A program made the position numbers and the translations under genes. From Vulcanimicrobiota bacterium (GTDB lineage Bacteria; Vulcanimicrobiota; Vulcanimicrobiia; Vulcanimicrobiales; Vulcanimicrobiaceae): DNA of 64,000 nucleotides. Positions 19,720 through 61,079 of this stretch are shown one piece after another. The stretch spans positions 32,001-96,000 of the forward strand of contig PLCF01000085.1 in the NCBI GenBank assembly GCA_003135555.1, in the 5' to 3' direction. The notes under the pieces are model-generated. The model worked only from the letters and a program-made list of their open reading frames with translations. It was not told the origin of the DNA and searched no databases. The first letter of the stretch is position 1. Every line of letters begins with the position of its first letter.

Positions 19720-21120
19720 CTACGTCGTTGCCGGAACGGGCGCGTTGTCCTCGAGCAGCGCCGTGAGCTTCTTGCGACGCCAAAAACCGTAGTAGTAGAT
19801 CGTCTGGAAGATCAAGCCGCAGCAGAACGCGACGGGATAGGCCACCCACACGCCGCGCAAGCCGTATTTCGGCGCGAGCGCGTAGGCGACCGGGACCTCG
19901 ATCGCCCAGATGGCGATGATCGAGAGCAGCGTCGGCCACACCACGGTGCCGCTCGAGCGCATCAAGCCCGAGAGCACGCTGGTGGTTCCGAAGACCGCGT
20001 AGCTCCACAGCGTGATCGCGAGCAAGTCGTGCGCCGTCGCGATGACCTTGGCGTCGGTGACGAACAGGGTGAGGATCGCGTCGTTGAAGACGTAGACGAG
20101 CCCGATGAGGGCGCCGCAGATCACCCAGTTCAAGCTGATCCCGGCCCGGGCGATGCGCCGCAAGCGGTCGAAGCGCTTGGCCCCGATCGACTGCGCGCCG
20201 AAAATCGAGGATGCGATCCCGATCGAGATCGCCGGGAACTGCACGTACGACACGATCTGGTTCACCGCACCGTACGCCGCGGTCGCCGACGAGCCGAAGC
20301 GGTTGACCAGCGAGATGACGGCGATCTCGGCCAGCGATACCATGACCATTTGCAGGCCGGCGGGGATCCCGATGCGCACCAGCGCCGCCAACAGCTTTGG
20401 TTCGATGTTCATGTGGCGTACGATCGACATGTCCAGCGCGAGCGGGTTCTTCTCGGCCGCCAAGGCGATGAGCAGGTAGGCGAGACCGAAGACATTGGCC
20501 ACGATGTTGCCGACCGCCGCGCTCACGATCCCGAGCTGTGGCAGCCCGAACCAGCCGCGAATGAGCGCCGGCGTCAGGACGAGGATCAGTGCGGTGCTGA
20601 CGATGAGCGACAGGAACGGCGTCCGCGAGTCGCCGGTGCCGCGGACGAACGTCGTGTAGGCGAGGTAGACGAAGAGCAGCGGCAGCGCCAAGAACGTGAC
20701 GTGCGCGTAGGCGAGCGCATCGTCGAAGACGTCCAAGGGCGTGCCGATCAGGTGCAGCAGCGGCGTCAGAAAGAACCAGCTCGCCGCGCCGATCACCGCG
20801 CCCGCGACGAGCGCGACGGCGAGCGTCGTGCCGGCGACCGCCTTGAGCCGCTCCTCGTTGTGGGCGCCATAGGCTTGCCCGATCAGCACCGTGCTGCCGC
20901 TCGCGATCCCGATGAAGAACGCGATCATGAAGAAGAGGATCGGGAAAAGCGACGACGCGGCCGCGAGCGCGCCGACCCCGATGAGCCGCCCCAGGTAGAT
21001 GCTGTTGAGCGTCGCCGACGCCGACTGCAAAATGTTACTGAGCATCAGCGGGACGAGGAAGACCAGCATCGCCTGCCAGATCGGCCGGGAGTCGTCGAGG
21101 GCGAGGCGGCGCTGCTGCAT
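19720..21120 (-). CDS. MATE family efflux transporter
   Basis: About 12 TM segments, RGTGDSRTP, IGIPAGLQ; ATG at 21120. Confidence 0.93.
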   Translation of the reverse strand: MQQRRLALDDSRPIWQAMLVFLVPLMLSNILQSASATLNSIYLGRLIGVGALAAASSLFPILFFMIAFFIGIASGSTVLIGQAYGAHNEERLKAVAGTTLAVALVAGAVIGAASWFFLTPLLHLIGTPLDVFDDALAYAHVTFLALPLLFVYLAYTTFVRGTGDSRTPFLSLIVSTALILVLTPALIRGWFGLPQLGIVSAAVGNIVANVFGLAYLLIALAAEKNPLALDMSIVRHMNIEPKLLAALVRIGIPAGLQMVMVSLAEIAVISLVNRFGSSATAAYGAVNQIVSYVQFPAISIGIASSIFGAQSIGAKRFDRLRRIARAGISLNWVICGALIGLVYVFNDAILTLFVTDAKVIATAHDLLAITLWSYAVFGTTSVLSGLMRSSGTVVWPTLLSIIAIWAIEVPVAYALAPKYGLRGVWVAYPVAFCCGLIFQTIYYYGFWRRKKLTALLEDNAPVPATT

Positions 21121-21182
21121 CCGGGACAGTGTGCCCCATCCGGGGACACCTCTCCCGCGCGGCGAAACCACGTCCGCGCGGC

Positions 21183-21254
21183 GGGCGATTAGCTCAGCGG
21201 GAGAGCAGCTCCTTTACACGGAGAAGGTCGGCGGTTCGAATCCGTCATCGCCCA
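21183..21254 (+). tRNA. tRNA-Val(TAC); CCA not encoded
   Basis: GGGCGAT/ATCGCCC stem, CTCC-TTTACAC-GGAG arm, GGTTCGAATCC. Confidence 0.95.
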
Positions 21255-21388
21255 CATCCGGCATCCGTCCTTGTCACATTGCGACACCCATACATCCGAA
21301 CATCCGAGTCGCAGACATGCGGCCATGCCGATAGGCGTGACATGCGGATATGCGGGCATGCGCACGTCGCGACATTGCGACATGAGTT
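21255..21388. repeat. Degenerate 8-bp-period CATnnnnn array
   Basis: cattgcga, cacccata, catccgaa, catccgag ... catgcgga, tatgcggg, catgcgca, cgtcgcga, cattgcga, catgagtt, mostly in one phase. Confidence 0.75.
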
Positions 21389-21446
21389 TCATCTTGACGG
21401 CGTAACGGGCGCACATGCGCACCGATGTAAATGGCGCTGGCCTTTT

Positions 21447-22121
21447 CTATTTGCTCACTAGGACTCTCGTGAGGTCGAAGAAGCTGTCAGATGGAGCGCC
21501 GCCCGGATACGTCTGTCGCTCCTCGCCTTTTAAGCGCATCTCGGTGATGATGCCGTTCTGGATGGTAACCGCACCGTGTGAACGTCGTCTGATGGTTCCG
21601 CTCACCATCTGCGTTTCGACCTGCCCCATTTGCGACCACGATCCGGCGAACGACACGTCCAGGACGCACCGACGACTCTTCTCGTCGACGCTCGTCACAA
21701 CGACCTGGACTGTTCCCCGATCCCCGAACGTGCTCTGCACCACCGCACCAGACCACTTCGCACCCACCGAAAGGACCGCTGGCGGAGTGCCGAACATTTG
21801 CGCAGTGTAGCCTAACGGAGCGATGCCTTCCGTAACCGGGCCGTCGCCGGAAAGCAGCGTGAGCGTGTCGGTATTCTCGCGGAACTCCCGCGTAGTCTTG
21901 TGCCCTTCCGTGACTGCGTCGACCGAAAAGCGCAAGTTCGGTTGACTGTCGATTGGCTGCGGGAGAATTCTAACCGTCGTGTTGCTTACAATTGTGTGAT
22001 CGAACGGACCCGTGATCCGGCGCCTCGTTTGGAACTGCAGCACTTGGTTAGGTGCGACCTGCGGTACCAGCATCGTCGACGGTGTCGCAAGAGCGAAGAC
22101 GACTGCAGCAAGTCCGAGCAT
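21447..22121 (-). CDS. Hypothetical secreted beta-rich protein
   Basis: 224 aa ORF with hydrophobic N-terminus. Confidence 0.65.
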   Translation of the reverse strand: MLGLAAVVFALATPSTMLVPQVAPNQVLQFQTRRRITGPFDHTIVSNTTVRILPQPIDSQPNLRFSVDAVTEGHKTTREFRENTDTLTLLSGDGPVTEGIAPLGYTAQMFGTPPAVLSVGAKWSGAVVQSTFGDRGTVQVVVTSVDEKSRRCVLDVSFAGSWSQMGQVETQMVSGTIRRRSHGAVTIQNGIITEMRLKGEERQTYPGGAPSDSFFDLTRVLVSK

Positions 22122-22182
22122 GCTAAGACAACTCTCCGTGAGACGGCAATGGGACTTGTGTCAAGTACGGACGCCACGAGAC

Positions 22183-22211
22183 GGGACCTCGGCGTTCGGA
22201 GCCGAGGTCCC
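22183..22211 (-). other. GC-rich intergenic hairpin after the small Cys-rich gene
   Basis: GGGACCTCGGC-7 nt-GCCGAGGTCCC perfect 11-bp stem, no U-tract. Confidence 0.7.
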
Positions 22212-22217
22212 CGAGCC

Positions 22218-22445
22218 TCAGTTGCAACCGGGTGTGCAGTTGATGGTGTACGAGCAGTCCGCATACATCGTTTGCCTGCACGTCCAGCATTGGCCCGCAT
22301 CGTCCGTGTAGGTGTAGTTGTGAACGAACGGCCTCGTCTTGCAGCCGGTGCCACCGTCACACTGGGCCGACGCGGGTTGCGATAAGGCGAAGGCGCCAAA
22401 AGCAATCCCAAGGGCCAGGAACGATTTCAGAAAGTAGGACTTCAT
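22218..22445 (-). CDS. Small secreted cysteine-rich peptide (75 aa)
   Basis: Sec signal ending ASA|Q; mature part has 7 Cys; purine-rich TAAGGGTGAG upstream of ATG. Confidence 0.78.
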   Translation of the reverse strand: MKSYFLKSFLALGIAFGAFALSQPASAQCDGGTGCKTRPFVHNYTYTDDAGQCWTCRQTMYADCSYTINCTPGCN

Positions 22446-22668
22446 ACACTCACCCTTAATAGAGGCGCCTAGGAGGCGCTCGCAAGCTTGCGTCGTAGCC
22501 AATAGTCGCCGCGACGATGGCCAGATTGTGCCTTAATGAGCCAGTCCCTGCTTGCTTTCCCATAGGGAAAAACCGCGCGATGAGCTAACGGCGGGCTAAA
22601 ATTGTTCGAAACTGGCTCCAAGGAGTCGATTTCCGAAACGGTTACCCAAAAACGCTTAGGGTGAGGCG

Positions 22669-25062
22669 ATGAGGCCGATGTTCGCGAGCGCATGCGTCGA
22701 TTGGCTGATGTGTCGGCGGTGGCGCGCAGGCTTGGCACTCCTGCTCGCGGCGGTGTTTTGCGCGTCCGCGCTCGAAGTTGCGCGTGCTGCGCGAGGTTTG
22801 GTTGACGTACGTGTCCTCGTACGAGATGGTGCGACCGGTAAGCCGATTGCCGGTGCACTGATTCGCTTCGAGGCCAAGACCCGGAAGCTGCTCGGGCGCG
22901 CGGACCTCGACGGCGAGGCCCGATTTGTCAGCGTGCCGGCCGGCGACTACGATCTCCACGTCACCGCGCAGGACTTTCAAGATGCGCTCGTCGTCGCCCG
23001 CGTTGACGGCGAAGCGGACTTGACGTTGACGGTCGCGCTGAGAGCCGGATTGCCGCAGATCGGTTCGGTTTCCGCTCGTCGCGACACCGCCGTAGTCACG
23101 GTGTCGCGAGATGCTGCCTCCGCACGCCTGTTTCCGGATTTTGCCGATGTGCTCAACCGACTGGCCGACGCCTCGATTTCGGTTGACCAGTACGGGCGAC
23201 TTGGCGCCGTTTCGTTCGCAGGCAAGGACGCGTCGCTCTCCACGGTCACATTTGACGGCGTCGATCTCTCCGACCCAGTAGCCCGACACGCGATCGACCC
23301 CGATCTGATACAATCTGCCAGGGAAAGCGCGGCGTCGGCGACTCTGGACCTGTTCACGCTTGGGCCGACCCCATGGACCCAGTACGTCGCGGACGATGTA
23401 CTCAGCGGATATCACGGCGCGCGCACGAAGTCAACAGTCCAAACCACCGTCGGGAATGTCGGCGTCGTTGGCGAGTACGCATCGAGCTCGCAGCGAAGCG
23501 CGTTGTACGGCGCGCGCTATTTGGATTCCAGCGGGCTCGACTATGTTCACCGAGGTCGTTTCGCGAGCGATTCGGTGTTGCTGAAGGTGACTGCGCCTCT
23601 CGCGCAACGCGTCACGGCGGAGACGGAGTTTCTGTCCACGTCGTCACGGCAGCAGCCGTCCAGTCCGTATTTTTCTGGAGCGCTTCCAGCGGGAAGCGGC
23701 CCCGGGACCTTCAGTGATTCTTCCTCCACGATCGCGAGGGTCGGAATAACGGCAAATCCGGGCCACTTCTTGGTTCAATCGGGGCTTTCCGTGGTCAACA
23801 CGAACAATGTCACGAACGAACTGGCGCGATACAGCGCAGGGCAGCCCGACCCTCTGTACGCGCAAGTCCGTGGAAGACAAGTGCAGGCGAGCCTCGGCGT
23901 CGTCGACCTCGTGTCCGCTCGCGAAACGCTGAATCTGAATCTCTCCAGCATTGCGAACGACAACCACTTCACTACCGTTGTCCCGCGGTTTCAGCTAGCA
24001 TCACTCGATACTCGTGACTACACGCGCACGACGCGGCTTTCGATCCGTGACGCGCGCAGCTTCTCGTCAGCGCAGCGCCTCCTCTTCGGATTCGACGAGA
24101 GCTTCGACAATCACGGTAACGCGGGTCTGACCGCGACGGCTTCGTTCGACGTCCGAGTCGGCTCGGACGACTTCCGCCTTGGAGTCTCGCACGGAAGGGA
24201 CCTCGCAAGCCGGAGTTCGGCCTCAGCTTTCAGTGATCCACAATCCGCGTCGTACGATTGCGAGAGCGGAACGATCATTGTGGCCGGGCCCAATCAGCAG
24301 CCAACCGCTCCACGGGCCTCGGATCTGCGCCTTGATTGGGTTCACAAAGGTCGTCGTTCAGAGCTCAATGTCGAGGTTGCGCAAACGCTCTACAGCGACG
24401 TCTCCCTGTCGAGCGCCTACGTTCCGATCTCGTCCATTCCGGTCTCGATAGTACCTGCGGGATATGTCGCATCCCTGCTTGGCGCCTTCACCCAGATCGG
24501 CGGTTGCCCAAGCAGCCTTGCGGCACCAAGTCTGTACGTCACCGAGAACATCAGCGGCGCGCAGACGCGTTATGTCACGGCTCGAGTTATCGCTACCACA
24601 CACGTAGGCAGCCGCCTACAGGTGCAGTGGGCGGCGGAAGTGCAACGCGCGACTCTGGTCAGCGCGCCAGCGGTCTTGCTTGGAATCGGGTCGCCATACG
24701 TGCCAGGGGGCCAACTACCAGGTGTGCCGCTGTTTCACGCGACCGCGACGGCCGATCTGCCTTGGCAGAATCGTCGCACGGAGAGCATTCTGAGCTTAGG
24801 CTTTGTTAGCGGCAACAACGAACGCCATCTACCGGCTTATGTACAACTCACTGCCGGGGTCGCACACCGTTTGAGCGAGAACGTAGATGCGTTCCTCATT
24901 TTCGCGAACGCCGGGCACGCCTACGTGGGCCTATTCAACTCCCCGTTGTATGCCCAAGGGGTCCCGACAATCGGCGGCGGAACCCTACGGACCTTCGCCG
25001 CACCCCTCGTGCAGCCGAACGTGCACTTGAACGTCCGAGTAAAGGTCCGCCACGGCGACTGA
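22669..25062 (+). CDS. Carboxypeptidase-regulatory-like domain plus TonB-dependent-receptor-like outer-membrane protein
   Basis: VRDGATGKPIAGA...DGEARF..VPAGDY; plug-like VTFDGVDL; many amphipathic strands; start uncertain. Confidence 0.7.
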   Translation: MRPMFASACVDWLMCRRWRAGLALLLAAVFCASALEVARAARGLVDVRVLVRDGATGKPIAGALIRFEAKTRKLLGRADLDGEARFVSVPAGDYDLHVTAQDFQDALVVARVDGEADLTLTVALRAGLPQIGSVSARRDTAVVTVSRDAASARLFPDFADVLNRLADASISVDQYGRLGAVSFAGKDASLSTVTFDGVDLSDPVARHAIDPDLIQSARESAASATLDLFTLGPTPWTQYVADDVLSGYHGARTKSTVQTTVGNVGVVGEYASSSQRSALYGARYLDSSGLDYVHRGRFASDSVLLKVTAPLAQRVTAETEFLSTSSRQQPSSPYFSGALPAGSGPGTFSDSSSTIARVGITANPGHFLVQSGLSVVNTNNVTNELARYSAGQPDPLYAQVRGRQVQASLGVVDLVSARETLNLNLSSIANDNHFTTVVPRFQLASLDTRDYTRTTRLSIRDARSFSSAQRLLFGFDESFDNHGNAGLTATASFDVRVGSDDFRLGVSHGRDLASRSSASAFSDPQSASYDCESGTIIVAGPNQQPTAPRASDLRLDWVHKGRRSELNVEVAQTLYSDVSLSSAYVPISSIPVSIVPAGYVASLLGAFTQIGGCPSSLAAPSLYVTENISGAQTRYVTARVIATTHVGSRLQVQWAAEVQRATLVSAPAVLLGIGSPYVPGGQLPGVPLFHATATADLPWQNRRTESILSLGFVSGNNERHLPAYVQLTAGVAHRLSENVDAFLIFANAGHAYVGLFNSPLYAQGVPTIGGGTLRTFAAPLVQPNVHLNVRVKVRHGD

Positions 25063-25175
25063 TTGCAGCAAACTCAGAGCATCTTCTTCCGGGGCTTGCG
25101 CAGGTCCGGTTGCCTGGTCGTCCCAGTTCGTCGCTTGGCGGCGAATAGCTGAGCCTGAAACGTTAAGTCCCAGCG

Positions 25176-25243
25176 GGTTACCGCGATTTCGCTGTCGACT
25201 CGGCGGGTTAGGATGATTTGACGGTTATTGTGATAGACCAACA
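25176..25243. repeat. End-like unit, copy 1
   Basis: GGTTACCGCGATTT-16-GGTTAGGATGATTT-3-GGTTATTGTGATA-GACCAACA. Confidence 0.85.
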
Positions 25244-25495
25244 TCCGGCACATGTTGCTATTGCGGCATGTGAGACCGGAGACGATGGGACGGGACTGAC
25301 CACGAACGTCCCTCCATTGCTGCATCCGACGCCGGCATACGTGGCGGAATAGCCGCCATGGGACTTGCTCTGCGCGCTAACGTGGTGCAGACATCCGTGA
25401 GAGTTTCCAAATAGAAATGAAGCCGAATCCAGGAGGGCCAGGCCGCGCCAAGGCGGATTCGAGGGAAGGCCTCGCCCGTTTTTGAATCACACGCC

Positions 25496-26410
25496 ATGCG
25501 CCGATGCTTTGTTCATGTTGGCACGCATAAGACCGGAACGACGTCCGTACAGGCCTTCCTGGCGATGAATCACAGAGCGTTGCTTTCGGCCGGGATTCTC
25601 GCGCCGTTGACCGGGCGCCCGAGTCACTTACCCGACTACCCAAACTTCGGTCATCACAACATTGCATGGGAATTGAACGAGGACCCTCGTTTCCGGCCCG
25701 AGTCGGGAACGTTGAACGAGCTCGTATCGGAGATAGCGCGTGTCGCGTCGCACACAGTAGTTTTGAGTTCGGAGGATTTTGAATACCTTCATGCAAAGCC
25801 GGCGGCCTTGCATGAGCTGGCTCGCGCGTTGTGCGATATTGGTTACGGAATTGAATTCATCGCGTACCTGCGTCCACAAGGTGAATACGCGCAATCGCTA
25901 TATCTTACGTTACTCCTGTTCGGCCTTAACCTGAGTTTTTCGGACTTTCTCGATATAGTACTTCAGCGTGGCGCCTTTACGTTTTCCGAACGTTGGATCT
26001 TCCAATTCGACTACACAAAACTGCTCGATGCTCTTGCTGATGTGGCCGGGCCTTCCGGCATGTCCGTGCGGCGCTATCGCCAGGACGCTGAAGCTAGTCT
26101 CCTACTCGCCGAGTTCGCTTCAATTGTGCAGACCCCAAGCGGAAAGGCGGCGTTCGACCAATTTAACCTGCCCGACCGAATGAATCGTAGAATATCGCTG
26201 GAAACCGCTTGCGAACTCTTAGTAGATAACCAAGATCCGTCGCACCATCGCGAAATACGGGAGGCGGCATCGCCGGGTTCATTTTGGAAAGCTGAGGACG
26301 GAGCCCGACTTCTCGCGCGATTTAGCGCGGAAAATGATGATCTCGCCAAAAAATATGCACTCCACCTTCCAGTCCTTGGTTCTGCCTTTAGCAATGAGCG
26401 TGCGCCTTAG
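25496..26410 (+). CDS. Sulfotransferase-like P-loop protein
   Basis: HVGTHKTGTTSVQ, VVLSSEDF, YLRPQ motifs. Confidence 0.75.
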   Translation: MRRCFVHVGTHKTGTTSVQAFLAMNHRALLSAGILAPLTGRPSHLPDYPNFGHHNIAWELNEDPRFRPESGTLNELVSEIARVASHTVVLSSEDFEYLHAKPAALHELARALCDIGYGIEFIAYLRPQGEYAQSLYLTLLLFGLNLSFSDFLDIVLQRGAFTFSERWIFQFDYTKLLDALADVAGPSGMSVRRYRQDAEASLLLAEFASIVQTPSGKAAFDQFNLPDRMNRRISLETACELLVDNQDPSHHREIREAASPGSFWKAEDGARLLARFSAENDDLAKKYALHLPVLGSAFSNERAP

Positions 26411-27147
26411 CGAGGTTCTTTCCTCCAGTATACGGCGGTCCAATCAACGGTCTCTAGCGGCTCGCGAATCGCGTTTCTGTCCCGATAGTCCTCGACCGCT
26501 TTCGCGCACGAAGGAATCGCGCCGTAATCGTCGACGATACAATACCCTCCGGCACTCACTTTAGGGTACAGTGATTCGAGCGCAATCATCGTTGACTCAT
26601 ACATGTCTCCGTCTAGCCGCAGAAGCGCAAGTTGGCCCATTGGCGCGTCTGGAAGGGTGTCGCGAAACCAGCCTTCGAGAAACCGAACCCGCTCGTCGAG
26701 CAGGCCGTACCGATCAAAAGCCCGTTGCACCTCACCTAGCGGCACAGCAAGTGCTTCAAAGGTCTGCAGCGAATCGCCGGCATCCTCGGGATAACGAATC
26801 GCGTCGGGCGCCGGCAGTCCTGCAAAGGAATCTGCGACCCAAACATACCGGTCGGAAATGCCGTACGCTTGTAAAATGCCGCGCATGAGAATTGCCGCCC
26901 CACCTCGCCAAACGCCGGTCTCGATAAAGTCACCAGGGACTCCCCGACGCAGAGTATCTCGAGCGCAGAATTCCAAGTTATCGAGGCGTTTTGGGCCAAT
27001 CATGGTGTGAGCGCGAACGGGCCAGTGCGGGCCCCTAGGCGTACCGGTTACTAAGACTTCATGGGCGTCATAAATGATATCGAGCAACGATCGTTTCAGG
27101 AGATCGATGTAGAGGGTTACGAGTCGTTCATCGTCGGTGTAGCCCAT
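26407..27147 (-). CDS. TylF/MycF/NovP-family O-methyltransferase
   Basis: PGDFIETGVWRGG, ADSFAG, GWFRDTLP, LRLDGDMYEST, VDDY. Confidence 0.93.
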   Translation of the reverse strand: MGYTDDERLVTLYIDLLKRSLLDIIYDAHEVLVTGTPRGPHWPVRAHTMIGPKRLDNLEFCARDTLRRGVPGDFIETGVWRGGAAILMRGILQAYGISDRYVWVADSFAGLPAPDAIRYPEDAGDSLQTFEALAVPLGEVQRAFDRYGLLDERVRFLEGWFRDTLPDAPMGQLALLRLDGDMYESTMIALESLYPKVSAGGYCIVDDYGAIPSCAKAVEDYRDRNAIREPLETVDWTAVYWRKEPR

Positions 27148-27269
27148 GGAGTCCCCGCGTATCGGTTCGCGTGAAATAGTGGATCACAATTCTGCGTTGG
27201 CCCCGAAGAGGGGTGCTGCCATCCGCCCTGCAGAGGTCAGCCTCATTGATTGTGGCCCACGATCGGGCA

Positions 27270-27337
27270 GGTTAGCGCGATTTCGCCAACGAGCATCTCG
27301 GTTAGGGTGATTTGCGGATTATTGTGATAGACCAACA
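27270..27337. repeat. End-like unit, copy 2
   Basis: GGTTAGCGCGATTT-16-GGTTAGGGTGATTT-3-GATTATTGTGATA-GACCAACA. Confidence 0.85.
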
Positions 27338-27614
27338 TTACGTATCCGAGCATGCACATGCTTTATCCGGCGCGACGCAAACCTGGAAACCATCCGTCGC
27401 GGCGTCGAACTACGAACAGCCTCGTCCCTGAACGCTTTACCGTCGGCGAAATGCGGCTGACGGCGCGCTAGGGGCGACCACCGCAAGGCCGTAATTCGTT
27501 CTATCCAGAAAACTTTTTCGATGCTGCTCCAGTTCGTAATGGGCACGCTAGCCCGTTGAGGCAACGCGCACTTCAGGGTGCAACTATCAGGTCTTCGAAA
27601 ACAGCAGACGTGCG

Positions 27615-27650
27615 CGCTGCTTTATCACGATAACCCTCGTCGCGGTGACT
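27615..27650. repeat. Partial inverted copy of the end-like unit
   Basis: CGCTGCTT-TATCACGATAACC (reverse complement of the terminal box), then a weaker CGTCGCGGTGACT box. Confidence 0.55.
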
Positions 27651-27820
27651 TCGGGCGCTCATGTCGTGCGCCCGCGAAGTCGAACGCTCCTTAGCCGAAG
27701 GCCATTCGATGCACTTTCTGCATGAGGGCCGCATTGTCGAGCTACCGGCTTGCGCCGCGGGTCACCCGGCGGGCTGAGCTAAAGGCTCGACGAGCCGTCG
27801 GGCCGGTTTGGACACCGTTG

Positions 27821-27889
27821 GGTTCGGGCGATTTCGAGCTCGGCCCGCAGGGTTCGGGGGATTTGACCCCTTATCGTGATAGACCAACA
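27821..27889. repeat. End-like unit, copy 3
   Basis: GGTTCGGGCGATTT-16-GGTTCGGGGGATTT-4-CCTTATCGTGATA-GACCAACA. Confidence 0.85.
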
Positions 27890-27932
27890 TCCGAGTTGCG
27901 CAGTGCGATCTTAGAGGGGTGTAGATACGCTT

Positions 27933-29417
27933 ATGGGGTACGCCGGGCCGATCACCAACATCATCGTCGTGATGCTCGAGAACCGCTCGTACGACAACGT
28001 TCTGGGGATGCTGTACGCGCCCGGGAACCCCGCACCGTACGACAGCGCGCCGGCCGGCCAGCTGACGCTGGACGGCCTCCCACCGGACGCGTCCAACGTG
28101 GACCCCGTCACGGGTCTCGCCCTTAACGCTTGGGGTGGTCCCGGCGACTCGCCGACGATCCCCGAGACCGACCCTGGCGAACCGTTCTACGACATGGCGC
28201 AACAGATCCAGGGCGCCGCATTCAAAGAGGACGACAACCCATATTCGTCGAGTGCGACCGCGCCCATGGGCGGCTTCGTGGCGAACTACCGCGCGCAGTT
28301 CGCGGGCGGGCAGACGGCTAGCTCCGCCGGGATCGGGAACGTGCAGAACGCCGTACGCGACGTCATGCATGTCTACACGCCCTGGCTCATGCCGGTAACG
28401 GCATACCTCGCGCGCAACTTCATGGTCTGCGATGCGTGGTTTGCTTCGGCGCCGACGCAGACGTTCGCGAACCGGATGTTCGCGCACTGCGCCACTCCCG
28501 GCGGGTCGAGTACCGAAAGCTTTCTCGACGACTCGCAGTATCTGTTGACCTGGGCGGCAGGCGGGTTTGGGGCGAACAACGTGTTCGCCCAACTCGACGC
28601 CGTGCTCGGCGTGGGTGCTAAGCCGAACTGGAAGGTCTACTTTCACGACTACTCGATCAGCATGGGCCTAGTAAAGTACGTCAACGCGGCCGCCACGAGT
28701 GCGAGCAACATCAATGTTGCCAGCTACGATCAGTCGGACTATCCCGATACGTCGTCCCTGTGGCCCGTCGGCGCGTGGCCCAACACGTTTCTGGCCGACC
28801 TCGCGAACGGGACGTCACCGCCGTACTCGTTCGTCGAGCCGCGCTACAGCAACAGCTATCAGGATCTGCTCGATTCGTCGAAGCACGCCGTTCCCGGCCT
28901 GGCACCGAATTCGAATCATCCGGGGCTGGCGAACTTCACGACGAACGCGCTCCCGAACAACCCGCCGATCAGCGTCGTCAACGGTGAGCTGTTTCTGCTC
29001 GGCCTGTACTCCGCACTGCTCGCGAGTCCGCTGTGGAAAAGCTCGCTGCTCGTCATCCTCTACGACGAGCACGGCGGATTGTACGACCACGTGTATCCGC
29101 CGAGCGTCGCGGCGGCGGCGAGCAGCGCGATCCCGCCCGCGTCGTCTTCCTATGGAAACTTCGCCTTCAACATCTACGGTGGGCGCGTGCCCGCGATCAT
29201 CGTCTCGCCGTTCGTGACGGCCGGGAGCAGGCTGGTCTCGTCGGGTGCCCCGTTCGACCACACGTCGATCATCCGAACCGTCTGGGACTGCTTCAATCTG
29301 GACCAAGGCACGCACGGCGCCGCTTCCATCAACGCGTGGGATCTAAACGCGCCATCGATTCTGACCAAGTGCTCCACGACGATCGTCAACAACCCGCCAA
29401 AACCGCCATCGCTCTGA
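27933..29417 (+). CDS. Phosphoesterase (phospholipase C/AcpA-like) family protein
   Basis: VMLENRSYD, CDAWFAS.P..TFANR, YDEHGGLYDHV.PP, GGRVP, FDHTS. Confidence 0.9.
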   Translation: MGYAGPITNIIVVMLENRSYDNVLGMLYAPGNPAPYDSAPAGQLTLDGLPPDASNVDPVTGLALNAWGGPGDSPTIPETDPGEPFYDMAQQIQGAAFKEDDNPYSSSATAPMGGFVANYRAQFAGGQTASSAGIGNVQNAVRDVMHVYTPWLMPVTAYLARNFMVCDAWFASAPTQTFANRMFAHCATPGGSSTESFLDDSQYLLTWAAGGFGANNVFAQLDAVLGVGAKPNWKVYFHDYSISMGLVKYVNAAATSASNINVASYDQSDYPDTSSLWPVGAWPNTFLADLANGTSPPYSFVEPRYSNSYQDLLDSSKHAVPGLAPNSNHPGLANFTTNALPNNPPISVVNGELFLLGLYSALLASPLWKSSLLVILYDEHGGLYDHVYPPSVAAAASSAIPPASSSYGNFAFNIYGGRVPAIIVSPFVTAGSRLVSSGAPFDHTSIIRTVWDCFNLDQGTHGAASINAWDLNAPSILTKCSTTIVNNPPKPPSL

Positions 29418-29479
29418 CGCCGCACCGGAGGCTCCACCGGTTTCGATCATCGCAACGATTTGCGGGGGCCGCAGCTCGA

Positions 29480-30031
29480 CTACGTTTTCTTGCGCGTATA
29501 TTTGATCTCCACGCCCTTCCACTCCGGGACCGTGCCGAAGCTCAAGTAGCTCGACGCAATCATCGCGTTGGCCGAGATGGGTCCGATGACGGTGCGCTGG
29601 TGCCACGTGTCGGCGCCGATCGGGTAGTCCGCCTTCAGCTCGAACTGCTTCGTCGTCGCGTCGTAGCTGCCGGTCTCGGCGATGCGACTGGTGTTGGTGG
29701 TCGCGATGCGCGTAGCTTCGTACTGGTGCGTAGACGTATTGAAGCCGGTCCACGCGAGGGTCGTGAACGGCGTGCCGTTCAGCACGCCTTCGATCTTCTC
29801 TTCGACGAAGAGCCCGTCGAACAGCGGCCGGATCGTCGACGTGCCCTTGGTCAAAAGACCCGGGCCGCCGGGCCGAAACCAGAACGTCATTTCGACGTCC
29901 CAGGTGCCGACCATCGCGGCGAGGCGCGCATGCTCGGGGTCGGCCGGTGGGGCGGCGTTGGCGGTCGTCGCCGTCGCGATCGCGGTCGCGGCGACGAGTG
30001 CGGCAATCAACCAGACACGTGGACGGTTCAT
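29480..30031 (-). CDS. Secreted DUF1579-like protein
   Basis: Signal peptide, PEHARLAAMVGTWDV, EIKYTRK. Confidence 0.75.
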   Translation of the reverse strand: MNRPRVWLIAALVAATAIATATTANAAPPADPEHARLAAMVGTWDVEMTFWFRPGGPGLLTKGTSTIRPLFDGLFVEEKIEGVLNGTPFTTLAWTGFNTSTHQYEATRIATTNTSRIAETGSYDATTKQFELKADYPIGADTWHQRTVIGPISANAMIASSYLSFGTVPEWKGVEIKYTRKKT

Positions 30032-58825: not shown

Positions 58826-59263
58826 GTGAATCGATGCGTCCTCGGCGCCGCGCTCGGCGCCCTCGTCCTCGCCGCGCCGGTGGCGGCGCGCGCGGCGATC
58901 GACCCGTGCTCGCTCATCCCGACGGCGCAGGTTCGAGCGATGACCGGCGGCACGGGCAAGGGGAGTTGGCATCACGCCGTCGGTCACGGCCGCTACGCGC
59001 AGGAGACCTGCCACTACGACGGACCGCTCAAGCGCGCCGTGCTCGTCGCCGTGCATCTCGACGCGCGGCCGTTCGCCACGGTGAAGTCGATGACCAAGCC
59101 GCTCCCCGGCGTCGGCGCCGACGCGATCTACATGGCCGGCCCGACGAGCGTGATCGCGTTCGTGAAGCACGGGCACTACGTCTCGATGAGCTGGAACGCC
59201 GATCCCGGCAAACCGTCGCCGCAGTTTCTCGCGGCCGCGAAGGCGGCAGCCGCGAAACTCTAG
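58826..59263 (+). CDS. Hypothetical secreted protein
   Basis: Signal peptide ARA|A, DPCSL...TC pair, PGVGADA. Confidence 0.7.
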   Translation: MNRCVLGAALGALVLAAPVAARAAIDPCSLIPTAQVRAMTGGTGKGSWHHAVGHGRYAQETCHYDGPLKRAVLVAVHLDARPFATVKSMTKPLPGVGADAIYMAGPTSVIAFVKHGHYVSMSWNADPGKPSPQFLAAAKAAAAKL

Positions 59264-59746
59264 TCCCGCGGGGTTGTGACCTCGGCGCCGACGATAGCCG
59301 AATATGGGAATAGGCGACAATCGCTTAGTGCGGCTTTGCCCGGATCGAGACACTGCTGATTGTCGTGGACCTGACCGTTGCAGGTGGCACGAAGTCCGGA
59401 GGCTGCACGCATGCGAAGACCCAGGCTCTAGGCCGTGCCAAAGCCGATTTAGGAAAGGGTCGCATCTCCCATCACGATGGCGCGATGTTGACCGGGATCG
59501 TTATCGTCGCTGAGGTGCCGTCGCTGCGACTTGCGACCAGTGAAGTCTGCAAGGTCGCTTGGCCGACCGGGACGGTCCAATCCCTTCGGGGGACCTATCT
59601 AGCCACTGAGTCGAAACCACTTCAAGCGGACAATTTGGTGAACAAGTCTCGCGCTAAGTATATGAAAAAACTCTGGCACTTGTGGCCGGATCATCGGATT
59701 TAGTGACAGCACCCGCTTGTCGGCCCCGTTGAGCAGGAGGTGCCTA

Positions 59747-60202
59747 ATGTCTGACGAGAGCTATCCCTTCATCGAGCGAGTGCTCGAGCACTGGAGGGCT
59801 CGTAGGGTGCCCTACCTTCCCGGAGTCGCCAAAGAGCAATTGCAGACGTTTGAGCGAGAGAAGAATCTGCGCTTGCCGGTTGAACTACGTGCTTTCTATT
59901 TGGCAACAAACGGTGTTCGAGTGCCGGGAACCATGGAGGTCGACGACAAGAACTACGACTTCTGGCCACTCGAAAAGCTCCAAGTCGTCGAGGGAGAGCC
60001 ATCAAAGCTCTACTTCGCGGACTTTCAACAGTCAACTTGGACATTTGCGATCGAACTCGAGGGCAATGAGACCGCTAATCCAGGTGCGGTGTACGTCGCT
60101 GACGCTAGGTTCATACCTATTGCGGATTCGTTCGCTGAGTTCATGAATCTATACATTGCGGACGACCCGTTGATCTATCCAATTACCTGGAAGGCGCAGT
60201 AA
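59747..60202 (+). CDS. SMI1/KNR4 (SUKH) family immunity protein
   Basis: FEREKNLRLPVELRAFY...NG, IADSFAEF; AGGAGG RBS. Confidence 0.88.
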   Translation: MSDESYPFIERVLEHWRARRVPYLPGVAKEQLQTFEREKNLRLPVELRAFYLATNGVRVPGTMEVDDKNYDFWPLEKLQVVEGEPSKLYFADFQQSTWTFAIELEGNETANPGAVYVADARFIPIADSFAEFMNLYIADDPLIYPITWKAQ

Positions 60203-60451
60203 CGGTGCACCTTCGGGCCGGGGGAGTTTCGCCACAAATCAGCCCTCTCTAGCGAGATCACTTGGCTGAACCAAAGCGTCGTCGCGGCCACGTTACACTT
60301 AACTGCGATCAGGTCATTAAAATGGCGTTGGAAGAGGCCGGCCTGGGCCGGCTTCTTGGAGTCCCCGCGATAGACGCCCATAACCACATGGATCAACCGG
60401 CCGCTGGGAAGGACGCGCAACCAAAGTAGATATGGCCGCATCGAGCACCCT

Positions 60452-60844
60452 ATGCACCGCCTAGGCTTGGCCCTCCTCGCAGACGTAAGTCTCGCTGCCG
60501 TGCTCTCCGCAGCGCAATTCATGATCTTATTTCAGATACAATTGGCATTCACAGCGGATCATGCCCTGCTCTATTTCGGCTCGCCGTTGGGTTTACTGCT
60601 GGGCCCTGCTTTGTACGTATTATGCCGACGAGGCAAGAAATCAAAACACCGTTTGATCCTTGACGTCGTCGTGGCTGCGGCGGTTCTGCTGCTATTAAGC
60701 GCAATGATTTTGAGCATCGGCCAAGGGATACCGAGTTTTTTCGAGGTGCTCACCTGGCTCGTCCTTCTCAGCCCGGCAGTGCTCGAGGCCGTGGGGCTAA
60801 TTGTTTTGGAATGGCTGATTCGGAAGGGGCGTTCGGGTACCTGA
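60452..60844 (+). CDS. Hypothetical 4-TM membrane protein
   Basis: 130 aa, hydrophobic, AT-richer codons. Confidence 0.6.
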   Translation: MHRLGLALLADVSLAAVLSAAQFMILFQIQLAFTADHALLYFGSPLGLLLGPALYVLCRRGKKSKHRLILDVVVAAAVLLLLSAMILSIGQGIPSFFEVLTWLVLLSPAVLEAVGLIVLEWLIRKGRSGT

Positions 60845-61079
60845 AAGAGCGCGAGCGCCGTCGGCAGCTACGAACCGCTCGACGTGCTTGCGCATCGCTG
60901 AACCTTGGCACGATACGCGGAGAGGTCGCTCGCGTCAGCCTGTGGAGCGGAAGGCTCTGGCGATCGTCGCAGACGGCCGTGAAACCAGCCGCATAGAAGC
61001 AGGAACGGTGGCCAGGACGAGATGCCCATGCAATCAGAACAGGAGCATGTGACGGTCGCGCCCGAACGTGGGCCGTTCC

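Follow-up and report, generated by a model that had tools for sequence, protein, structure and literature searches.

We analysed a window of 64,000 nucleotides on contig PLCF01000085.1 of a Vulcanimicrobiota assembly (GCA_003135555.1, hereafter G000: 3.57 Mb, 98 contigs, 84% complete, 68% GC), in which three short units of one build follow a tRNA-Val gene and separate blocks of cargo. The modules delimited in this way are attached to a single tRNA gene, a repeat of 8-10 nt flanks them, their ends are patchily distributed among related genomes, and no recombination enzyme is encoded between the ends. We tentatively regard the units as the right ends of non-autonomous, transposon-like modules, which would possess terminal inverted repeats (TIRs), duplicate their target, be directed to tRNA-Val, stack there and be moved in trans. 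The region would then be a clean natural example of the building of a genomic-island hotspot beside a tRNA gene, its builders being not integrase-bearing islands but short enzyme-less modules with recognisable ends that vary among co-existing peat strains. Knowledge of the ends allows such modules to be delimited in metagenome-assembled genomes (MAGs), where island borders are mostly guesswork.

Right ends, left ends and the flanking repeat

A 20-mer, TTATYGTGATAGACCAACAT, searched with up to three mismatches, matched the window at 25225, 27319 and 27871 and gave no match in 100 shuffles. The box GGTT-N5-GATTT was matched six times, twice per unit and exactly 30 bp apart (100 shuffles: mean 0.21, largest 3); the paired pattern occurs at these three places only in the whole G000 assembly, and six of the eight single boxes of the genome fall inside the units. 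In the alignments the 16-nt spacer between box 1 and box 2 differs from unit to unit, and a third, weaker box (GGTTATTGTGATAG) begins 17-19 nt after box 2. The three units lie between genes, covered only by short overlapping open reading frames (ORFs) or by alternative frames of the phosphoesterase gene, and they are as different from each other as from the unit of the related genome G009. The original prediction, made from the letters of the window, had described three units in one orientation, paired boxes with unlike spacers, a third repeat at a spacing of 17-18, an intergenic location and separate arrivals; pattern counts, alignments and ORF calls bear out this description, and the units, all on the plus strand, are absent elsewhere in the 3.57 Mb. 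Its 8-bp TGT terminus had to be given up: relatives place the element end at ...GACCA (25240, 27334 and 27886), the ACAT beyond it being duplicated target that is not conserved (CAT.. in G009, AGAG.. in G002, TGTC.. in G023), and the terminus on the minus strand reads TGGTC.

Relatives were sampled as a genus set of 44 genomes, a family set of 150 further genomes and a class set of 385 genomes; the genus tallies include G366, which is flagged as unpublished and on which no claim depends. The searches used a sequence-only model of the right end (R1, built from the three units in the window and that of G009), a model of the left end (R2) and a strict pattern of two GGTT-N5-GATTT boxes. In G009, G023, G017, G015 and G002 the tRNA is followed by 8-9 variable nt, by TGCTTTATCAC and by two boxes 30 bp apart. 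TGCTTTATCAC is an inverted copy of the terminal box of the unit, the two inner boxes run in the unit's own direction, and another inverted box lies ~97 nt further. The right end consequently has three direct boxes, and the left end has a mirrored terminal box followed by two boxes in the right-end direction. TGCTTTATCAC agrees with the reverse complement of GTGATAGACCA (TGGTCTATCAC) at 9/11 positions (chance ~8e-5), both having the form TG...CA, and by eye ~14 of the first 20 nt agree between the ends. Within the genus R2 matched exactly the five genomes named above and no others, always 8-9 nt past the tRNA; left and right ends co-occur, because R2 matches only genomes that also have a right end. 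A whole module of 1.9 kb is present in the metagenome locus L205 (2.2 kb), which reads tRNA-Val, spacer, left end, 1.7 kb of small ORFs, right end, spacer and next left end, and the same junction of right end, spacer and left end recurs in L213 and in G002.

The 8-10 nt that follow the tRNA recur directly after the unit, alike within a genome and different between genomes. The two copies of ACATCCGGCA in the window (Table 1) agree at 10/10 positions, as do those of ACATCGCATC in G009; agreement is 9/10 in G023 and 8/10 in G015, and the repeat of G002 is GAGCGCTG. When 9-mers were compared with a slack of one position, the flanks of seven genomes agreed internally at 9, 9, 8, 6, 8, 9 and 6 of 9 positions, against a mean of 4.39 and a maximum of 7 between genomes (n=54). 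Because the repeats are near-identical within genomes and unalignable between species, the sequences argue for insertions younger than the species. Empty sites were found in G004, G016 and G012, where an fpg-like gene begins 35-90 nt after tRNA-Val and the ends are absent; G023 and G015 carry inserts of 21 kb and 6.7 kb between tRNA-Val and the same fpg-like gene. The empty site of G382 (GATGCAATG) has GATGCAAT once, a word that also follows the right end of L213. The repeated 8-10 nt are therefore host sequence. Nothing resembling the TGCTTTATCAC half-site follows the spacer in the empty sites, and no empty/filled pair from one strain was seen apart from the joint in the metagenome run X4 described below.

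Distribution in relatives and in peat strains

The tRNA-Val gene was matched (E<=0.001) in 43 of the 44 genus genomes, the best match being at least 90% identical in most of them. At E<0.01, R1 gave nine matches in this set (three in G000, two in G002, one each in G009, G023, G017 and G008), and G015 and a second site in G023 followed at E 0.013; seven of the 44 genomes carry ends. All nine, together with two of the five matches at E 0.01-0.05, lie at the tRNA-Val locus, making 11 of 14 at E<0.05; the other three (G017:C11, G015:C13 and G020:C1) are at chance level, and the number of matches at E 0.03-1 is that expected by chance. Every good match (six other species) is downstream of tRNA-Val on the tRNA-bearing contig, at a distance of 1.7 kb in G002, 2 kb in G009, 6.7 kb in G015, 9 kb in G017 and 21 kb in G023, and on the tRNA strand in all but G008, where an inverted unit begins 10 nt past the tRNA. 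The ends are patchy even where tRNA-Val is 100% identical, the sites of G003 and G382 being empty. The original prediction had taken the units for ends of discrete cargo modules tied to tRNA-Val and asked whether a scan of relatives would find them clustered there, with cargo varying from strain to strain. The matches fall in this manner, cargo content differs between species, and the scatter of matches before core genes that would have marked a regulon was not seen in the 44 genomes.

Beyond the genus, R1 gave no match at E<=0.001 in the family set, and the strict pattern occurred in G000 and G009 only among the 385 class genomes. A 19-base pattern run over metagenomes returned 30 loci with four true relatives, L198, L205, L213 and L206 (the last being the G009 contig). 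Viral contigs gave a single chance match to the right-end pattern, on an AT-rich contig, and none to the left-end pattern. An exact 15-mer, a word too short for the purpose, hit 120 loci in genome contigs (596 Gb), all by chance and none with boxes upstream, and loose 11-mer scans of the G000 genome returned noise only. Because there is no Rfam match and no viral-contig match and the taxonomic range is narrow, the earlier suggestion of a possibly undescribed element family stands, the literature not having been searched for this repeat.

Several related loci deviate from the common pattern. The smallest (L135, G008:C106, 816-1322) consists of tRNA-Val, 10 nt, the inverted unit, a gene for a 126-aa SnoaL-like protein and a conserved anchor gene, and shows no second end; an origin by inversion finds no support in the sequence past this unit, which gave no match when compared with the G017 island in the reverse direction. 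G371 (L175) has a diverged left end, TGCGTTATCATGGTAAGCC..GTGACGTC, directly after tRNA-Val (R2 E 0.015 in a local search), and no right end was found in the G371 genome. A site resembling box 2 plus box 3 at the start of an aldo/keto reductase gene (G009:C386; L231 7719-7757), ~1.1 kb from a sub-threshold rve-like fragment, was rejected as a real unit, its genome-level E of 0.2 being chance and its neighbours ordinary core genes. On G009:C221 (L126 1860-1935), ~320 nt from the G009 unit and on the opposite strand, there is a lookalike of a tRNA T-arm and acceptor 3' strand that ends in ACCA; neither ARAGORN nor Rfam calls a tRNA there, and it may be what is left of a further attachment site.

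DNA of the window is present in peat metagenomes, which were compared as Logan contigs, excluding as evidence those stretches of the runs X4 and X6 that lack contig cover. In X4, a run of the study to which the probable source sample belongs, one contig (depth 36.7) appears to join 21253 to 25241 and so to skip 3987 bp, namely module A plus unit 1, with 10 letters fitting both sides of the joint. In the same run the depth over module A is 4-12, against 26-86 in adjoining bins. Contigs of module A agree with the window letter for letter, and those of greater depth to the right of the module diverge from the window by 2-6%. Strains thus apparently differ in having or lacking module A, and the difference falls exactly on the borders predicted. 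The runs X2 and X3 hold a contig of 8.6 kb collinear with 21229-29843, with small insertions exactly at 25240/25241, where the unit 1 junction has an extra CATCCGC-like copy. An X6 contig tracks the window to 27808, 13 nt before unit 3, and continues with unrelated sequence, which suggests another strain-level breakpoint at a unit border.

The missing enzyme and the competing explanations

Proteins were screened by Pfam for integrases (PF00589), rve-type transposases (PF00665) and resolvases (PF00239), and unnamed proteins were also compared with NCBIfam. No integrase, transposase or resolvase was found among the window ORFs at 15-36 kb, no recombinase among 58 ORFs of five related islands, 18 of L198 and 12 of the mini-modules, and no NCBIfam match for 22 unnamed proteins. 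The earlier statement that the window has no recombinase can be extended to its whole 285 kb contig, any matches to the three families being on other contigs; elsewhere in G000 there are four genes of PF00589 and one of PF00239 (contigs C9, C55, C69 with two, and C64). Among genus genomes with both coordinates known, none has PF00589 near tRNA-Val (tables compared by eye), the nearest on the same contig, in G010, lying 57 kb off and on the wrong side. The island ORFs gave no tnsB/tnsC/tniQ-type Pfam match, no separate search with tnsC or tniQ models having been made. The copy next to transposase or integrase genes that the original prediction had suggested looking for was found in none of the islands examined. 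A recombinase hidden as a gene common to the islands was rejected: in an all-against-all BLASTP of 928 stop-to-stop frames no protein is common to all of them, and sharing is limited to a few pairs (a protein with TPR and LuxR-HTH domains in G017/G023, a Hypoth_Ymh fragment in G009/G017, and cargo in G023/L198 and in G002/L213). As the modules are without an enzyme of their own, they have to be moved by one acting in trans.

If the modules are transposon-like, a complete one would read 5'-TGCTTTATCAC...(cargo)...GTGATAGACCA-3', with imperfect TIRs of ~11-23 bp and two or three subterminal GGTTnnnnnGAT(T/A) boxes. The only point of insertion would be that immediately behind the final base of tRNA-Val, and 8-10 bp of target would be duplicated each time; a later arrival would take the same spot and shift the older modules outward. 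The expected outcome is an array of the order tRNA, module, module and so on, with all right ends pointing one way and with decay of the older left ends. The enzyme would recognise the tRNA 3' end through its likeness to the element's own right end, as a pseudo-end, and insert beside it. We infer that a DDE-type transposase made the flank repeat by duplicating the target site. This class is favoured because the repeat is non-conserved host DNA that differs between species, as a staggered cut yields automatically, and because an integrase would need an incoming element with the host's own spacer, when the empty sites have no partner half-site; the transposase assignment would nevertheless be provisional, as transposase and integrase both fit.

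Several observations weigh against this reading. The unit end GTGATAGACCA agrees with the tRNA 3' end at 8/11 positions (chance ~0.003), which is the classic look of an integrase attP, and the inner left-end boxes run in the same direction as those of the right end instead of being mirrored, a mirrored copy occurring in G008 only. After units 2 and 3 the sequence matches the word beside the tRNA at 5/9 and 6/9 only, which fits no model yet. The X4 joint is one Logan contig whose shorter side, of 25 nt, falls under the 30-nt warning and whose intervening part is marked not known, and a precise deletion between the 10-nt repeats would give the same joint. PF00665 has no match in G000 (84% complete) or G017, and the rve genes of G002, G009, G015 and G023 lie on other contigs or >260 kb from the locus. 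No transposase was found between these ends in the 44 genus genomes, the 150 family genomes, the four true metagenome contigs or the viral contigs, and the MAGs behind the tallies are 53-99% complete.

By analogy, the modules seem nearer in anatomy to transposon derivatives that are non-autonomous, mobile insertion cassettes (MICs) among them. MICs of the IS231 group, Tn3-derived inverted-repeat miniature elements (TIMEs) and miniature inverted-repeat transposable elements (MITEs) carry TIRs and a target duplication around passenger genes, lack a transposase and are moved in trans. Here, too, TIRs and a target duplication flank the cargo and no transposase lies inside. The modules differ from these elements in using one site per genome (the last tRNA-Val base) with fixed orientation and tandem stacking, in their cargo of up to 21 kb, in ends with box pairs that are not mirror images, and in having no known parent element with a transposase.

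It is somewhat unlikely, but has to be taken seriously, that the modules are tyrosine-recombinase islands, the units being attR-type junctions of islands that lost their integrase, stack by accretion and are moved by an integrase encoded in another place. The boxes would then be arm-type sites, GTGATAGACCA and GTCATCGCCCA core half-sites, TGCTTTATCAC their inverted partner and the 8-9 nt the overlap. Every tRNA/left-end and right-end/left-end junction indeed has 11 nt, an 8-9 nt spacer and an inverted 11 nt; in the mimicry of the tRNA 3' end, GGTT aligns with the T-loop GGTTCGAA; the box pairs are directly oriented on both arms; and G000 has four PF00589 genes on other contigs. At the borders, where an integrase island would show direct repeats comprising the tRNA 3' end, the exact repeat begins at the discriminator base and extends outward, and the unit end is a mimic of the last 11 nt. 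However, the shared 8-10 nt lie outside the tRNA, evolve fast and are species-specific, so that attP would have to match each host. The empty sites without a TGCTTTATCAC-like half-site and the distance of the nearest PF00589 gene also speak against an integrase, and the spacer of 8-9 nt is long for a tyrosine recombinase.

In behaviour, the array matches the tandem accretion of cis-mobilizable elements (CIMEs), which are decayed integrative elements, and the successive integration of tycheposons, in both of which insertion is likewise tRNA-linked, of fixed orientation and tandem (PMC5704250; bioRxiv 10.1101/2020.12.28.424599). CIMEs of the ICESt1 group are integrase-less, keep both junction sites, lie in tandem at a tRNA-linked site and are mobilised by a helper (PMC5704250). 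Their repeat consists of the conserved target-gene end, and they have a known relative with an integrase; in the present modules 8-10 nt of non-conserved DNA beyond the tRNA are repeated, and such a relative was not found. Tycheposons of Prochlorococcus form tRNA-linked islands in which successive integrations push older elements inward, leaving relics and heterogeneity within populations (bioRxiv 10.1101/2020.12.28.424599), features which the present islands share. Tycheposons have a tyrosine recombinase and flanking partial tRNA copies, whereas we find no recombinase and no true partial tRNA, only the mimic of its last 11 nt. Once found, the missing enzyme would be either a transposase that targets a tRNA end and makes a long duplication or an integrase acting on a non-conserved overlap, and either would be unusual.

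It is improbable, in our estimate, that the tRNA-Val 3' end is an attI-like primary loading site for circular cargo modules, forming a cassette platform outside integrons. Each module would carry one composite site of ~170 bp, in the order box pair, tRNA-end mimic, spacer, inverted half-site and box pair, an order seen intact at the right-end/left-end junctions of L205 and L213; the stacking enzyme would be encoded outside the modules and could be a recombinase or transposase, host-encoded or domesticated, of a family beyond recognition by Pfam and NCBIfam. Integron cassettes have attC sites that fold as imperfect hairpins, and intI lies beside attI. The modules resemble them as cargo units without recombinase, each with one composite site, inserted in one direction at a primary site. 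In contrast to integrons, the units have no attC-like fold, no intI stands by the array, and a module holds several genes on both strands. Single-strand folds of both strands of all three units gave z values of -0.81 to +0.80, and Rfam found only tRNAs in the region, on which grounds a structured-RNA or attC nature of the units was dropped. Mimicry of dif/Xer sites was rejected as well, there being no GTGATA-N11-21-TATCAC and no looser palindrome anywhere in G000.

Quite improbable is the view that the modules are dead relics of an ancient insertion, present differences being due to ordinary deletion and homologous recombination between short repeats. The lack of an enzyme, the decayed left ends in the window and the poor flank matches at units 2 and 3 agree with it. 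On the other hand, the perfect flank repeats of G000 and G009, which cannot be aligned between species, the unrelated cargo in every genome and the patchy occurrence among genomes with identical tRNA-Val do not.

A Tn7-like family (TnsB/TnsC/TniQ) stacked at its attachment site, suggested earlier from the layout of the ends, we hold to be very unlikely. Tn7 makes a 5-bp target duplication and has TGT...ACA termini and mirrored TnsB-binding repeats. The modules share with it several spaced repeats in an end (three, direct, beside the right terminus), one attachment site per genome beside a conserved gene, fixed orientation and stacking. The strict version fails on the duplication, which is 8-10 bp and not 5, on the termini, which are TGC/TGG (TGCTTT... 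and ...GACCA) and not TGT/ACA, and on tnsB, as an rve-family gene is absent from G000 and G017 and, in the other genomes, none is close to the locus. Of the left-end boxes the terminal one is mirrored and the two inner ones are not, G008 having a fully mirrored copy.

Least probable of all, and hardly to be expected, is that the units are operator or promoter arrays in which regulator-binding boxes drive the downstream genes of a small regulon: direct repeats spaced 30 and 18 bp are typical of regulator sites, and within 300 nt a same-strand gene follows two of the window units (1 and 3) as well as those of G023 and G015, but five of the nine genome units (unit 2 and those of G009, G002, G017 and G008) face nothing, a converging gene or a tRNA, no unit has a called sigma-70-like promoter (0/3; two in the region against 2.0 expected), no match stands before other genes beyond chance (the best being G009:C386), and the flank repeat and the strain difference are left unexplained.

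Layout of the array and its cargo

The array in the window (Table 1) has the order tRNA, module A (3.9 kb), unit 1, module B (2.0 kb) and unit 2, after which come the possible stub, ~250 nt, the left-end relic, ~160 nt, unit 3 and the phosphoesterase gene. It thus comprises three right ends, one left-end relic and two gene-bearing modules. The sequence of the relic is that found directly after tRNA-Val in G015, G017 and G009, here at a distance of 6.4 kb from that gene; a tRNA 3' relic before it, at 27590-27608, was rejected because the similarity is too weak. GC content around the units is 56-65%, against a background of ~70%, and the low-GC stretch starts at tRNA-Val. By synteny, its part from the phosphoesterase gene to ~36 kb is absent in G009, which has only 3.7 kb between the same anchors, and the fpg-like neighbour of tRNA-Val is not in the G000 assembly.

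Table 1. Features of the tRNA-Val array, in window positions.
Feature	Positions	Strand	Remarks
tRNA-Val(TAC)	21183-21255	+	ARAGORN and Rfam; 3' end GTCATCGCCCA, fixed landmark adjoining the start of every insert
Target repeat copy 1, ACATCCGGCA	21254-21263	+	tRNA discriminator A plus 9 nt; identical 10-mer at 25241-25250
Module A cargo	21264-25175	.	Three ORFs; left terminus TCCGTCCTTGTCAC resembles the family left end loosely
Junction-like relic, ATACATCCGA then ACATCCGAGTCGCAG	21285-21318	+	Local alignment: resembles the end of unit 3 plus the sequence after unit 3
224-aa ORF, module A	21447-22121	-	
94-aa Cys-rich ORF, module A	22218-22502	-	
797-aa TonB-receptor-like gene, module A	22669-25062	+	CarboxypepD_reg/Plug (Pfam)
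Unit 1	25176-25240	+	Putative right end of module A: box 1, 16-nt spacer, box 2, terminal box ending GTGATAGACCA; R1 76.1 bits
Target repeat copy 2, ACATCCGGCA	25241-25250	+	
Module B cargo	25251-27269	.	Two converging genes
304-aa ORF, module B	25496-26410	+	Family unknown; converges on the TylF gene
TylF-type O-methyltransferase, module B	26407-27147	-	Pfam TylF 2.4e-97
Unit 2	27270-27334	+	Putative right end; R1 71.7 bits
TGCTTTATCC, possible left-end stub	27359-27368	+	24 nt after unit 2; compared by eye with the consensus TGCTTTATCAC; weak
Left-end relic	27609-27663	+	9-nt spacer CGTGCGCGC, then TGCTTTATCAC, GATAACCC and GGTGACTT box; R2 match 27618-27663, E 6.9e-4
Unit 3	27821-27886	+	Putative right end, then ACATCCGAG; phosphoesterase start codon 47 nt on; R1 74.6 bits
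Phosphoesterase-family gene (PF04185)	27933-29417	+	Pfam 2.8e-47; opens a further low-GC stretch to ~36 kb

Pfam supported the receptor-like, TylF and phosphoesterase labels given earlier to the genes of the window; the label "sulfotransferase-like" was not reproduced, the 304-aa ORF of module B having no Pfam match at E<=1, no NCBIfam match and no meaningful match in the Protein Data Bank (PDB). Cargo differs from genome to genome and is the usual mix of the flexible genome, namely a TonB-type receptor-like protein, modification enzymes, a phosphoesterase, an RHS toxin, a STAND NTPase and SocA/Panacea. Conflict- or defence-like members are a 1455-aa RHS-repeat protein with an SLT domain in G015 (L193), an nSTAND3 NTPase in L198, HNH and SocA/Panacea proteins in G023, and a Hypoth_Ymh protein in G017 of which G009 has a truncated copy (L190-L192 are the G023/G017 islands).

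The word CATCCG occurs 12 times on the plus strand and never on the minus strand of 21000-28200 (7.2 kb), compared with 42 (+) and 11 (-) in the whole window, and six copies are at junction positions (21255, 21262, 21293, 21301, 25242 and 27888). Just inside module A, at 21314-21362, two adjacent 24-nt repeats are built on GACATGCGG, which may represent a binding array belonging to another kind of left arm; the X2 and X3 strains have one additional GACATGCG at 21313. A terminator-like hairpin with a T-run at 25460-25484 lies ~220 nt after unit 1 and 12 nt before the ATG of the 304-aa ORF. On the minus strand, 20 nt ahead of unit 3, the 28 nt at 27773-27800 show 75% complementarity to the 5' portion of tRNA-Val. 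A second low-GC patch (0.56-0.60, against a background of ~0.70) is located at 59001-61000.

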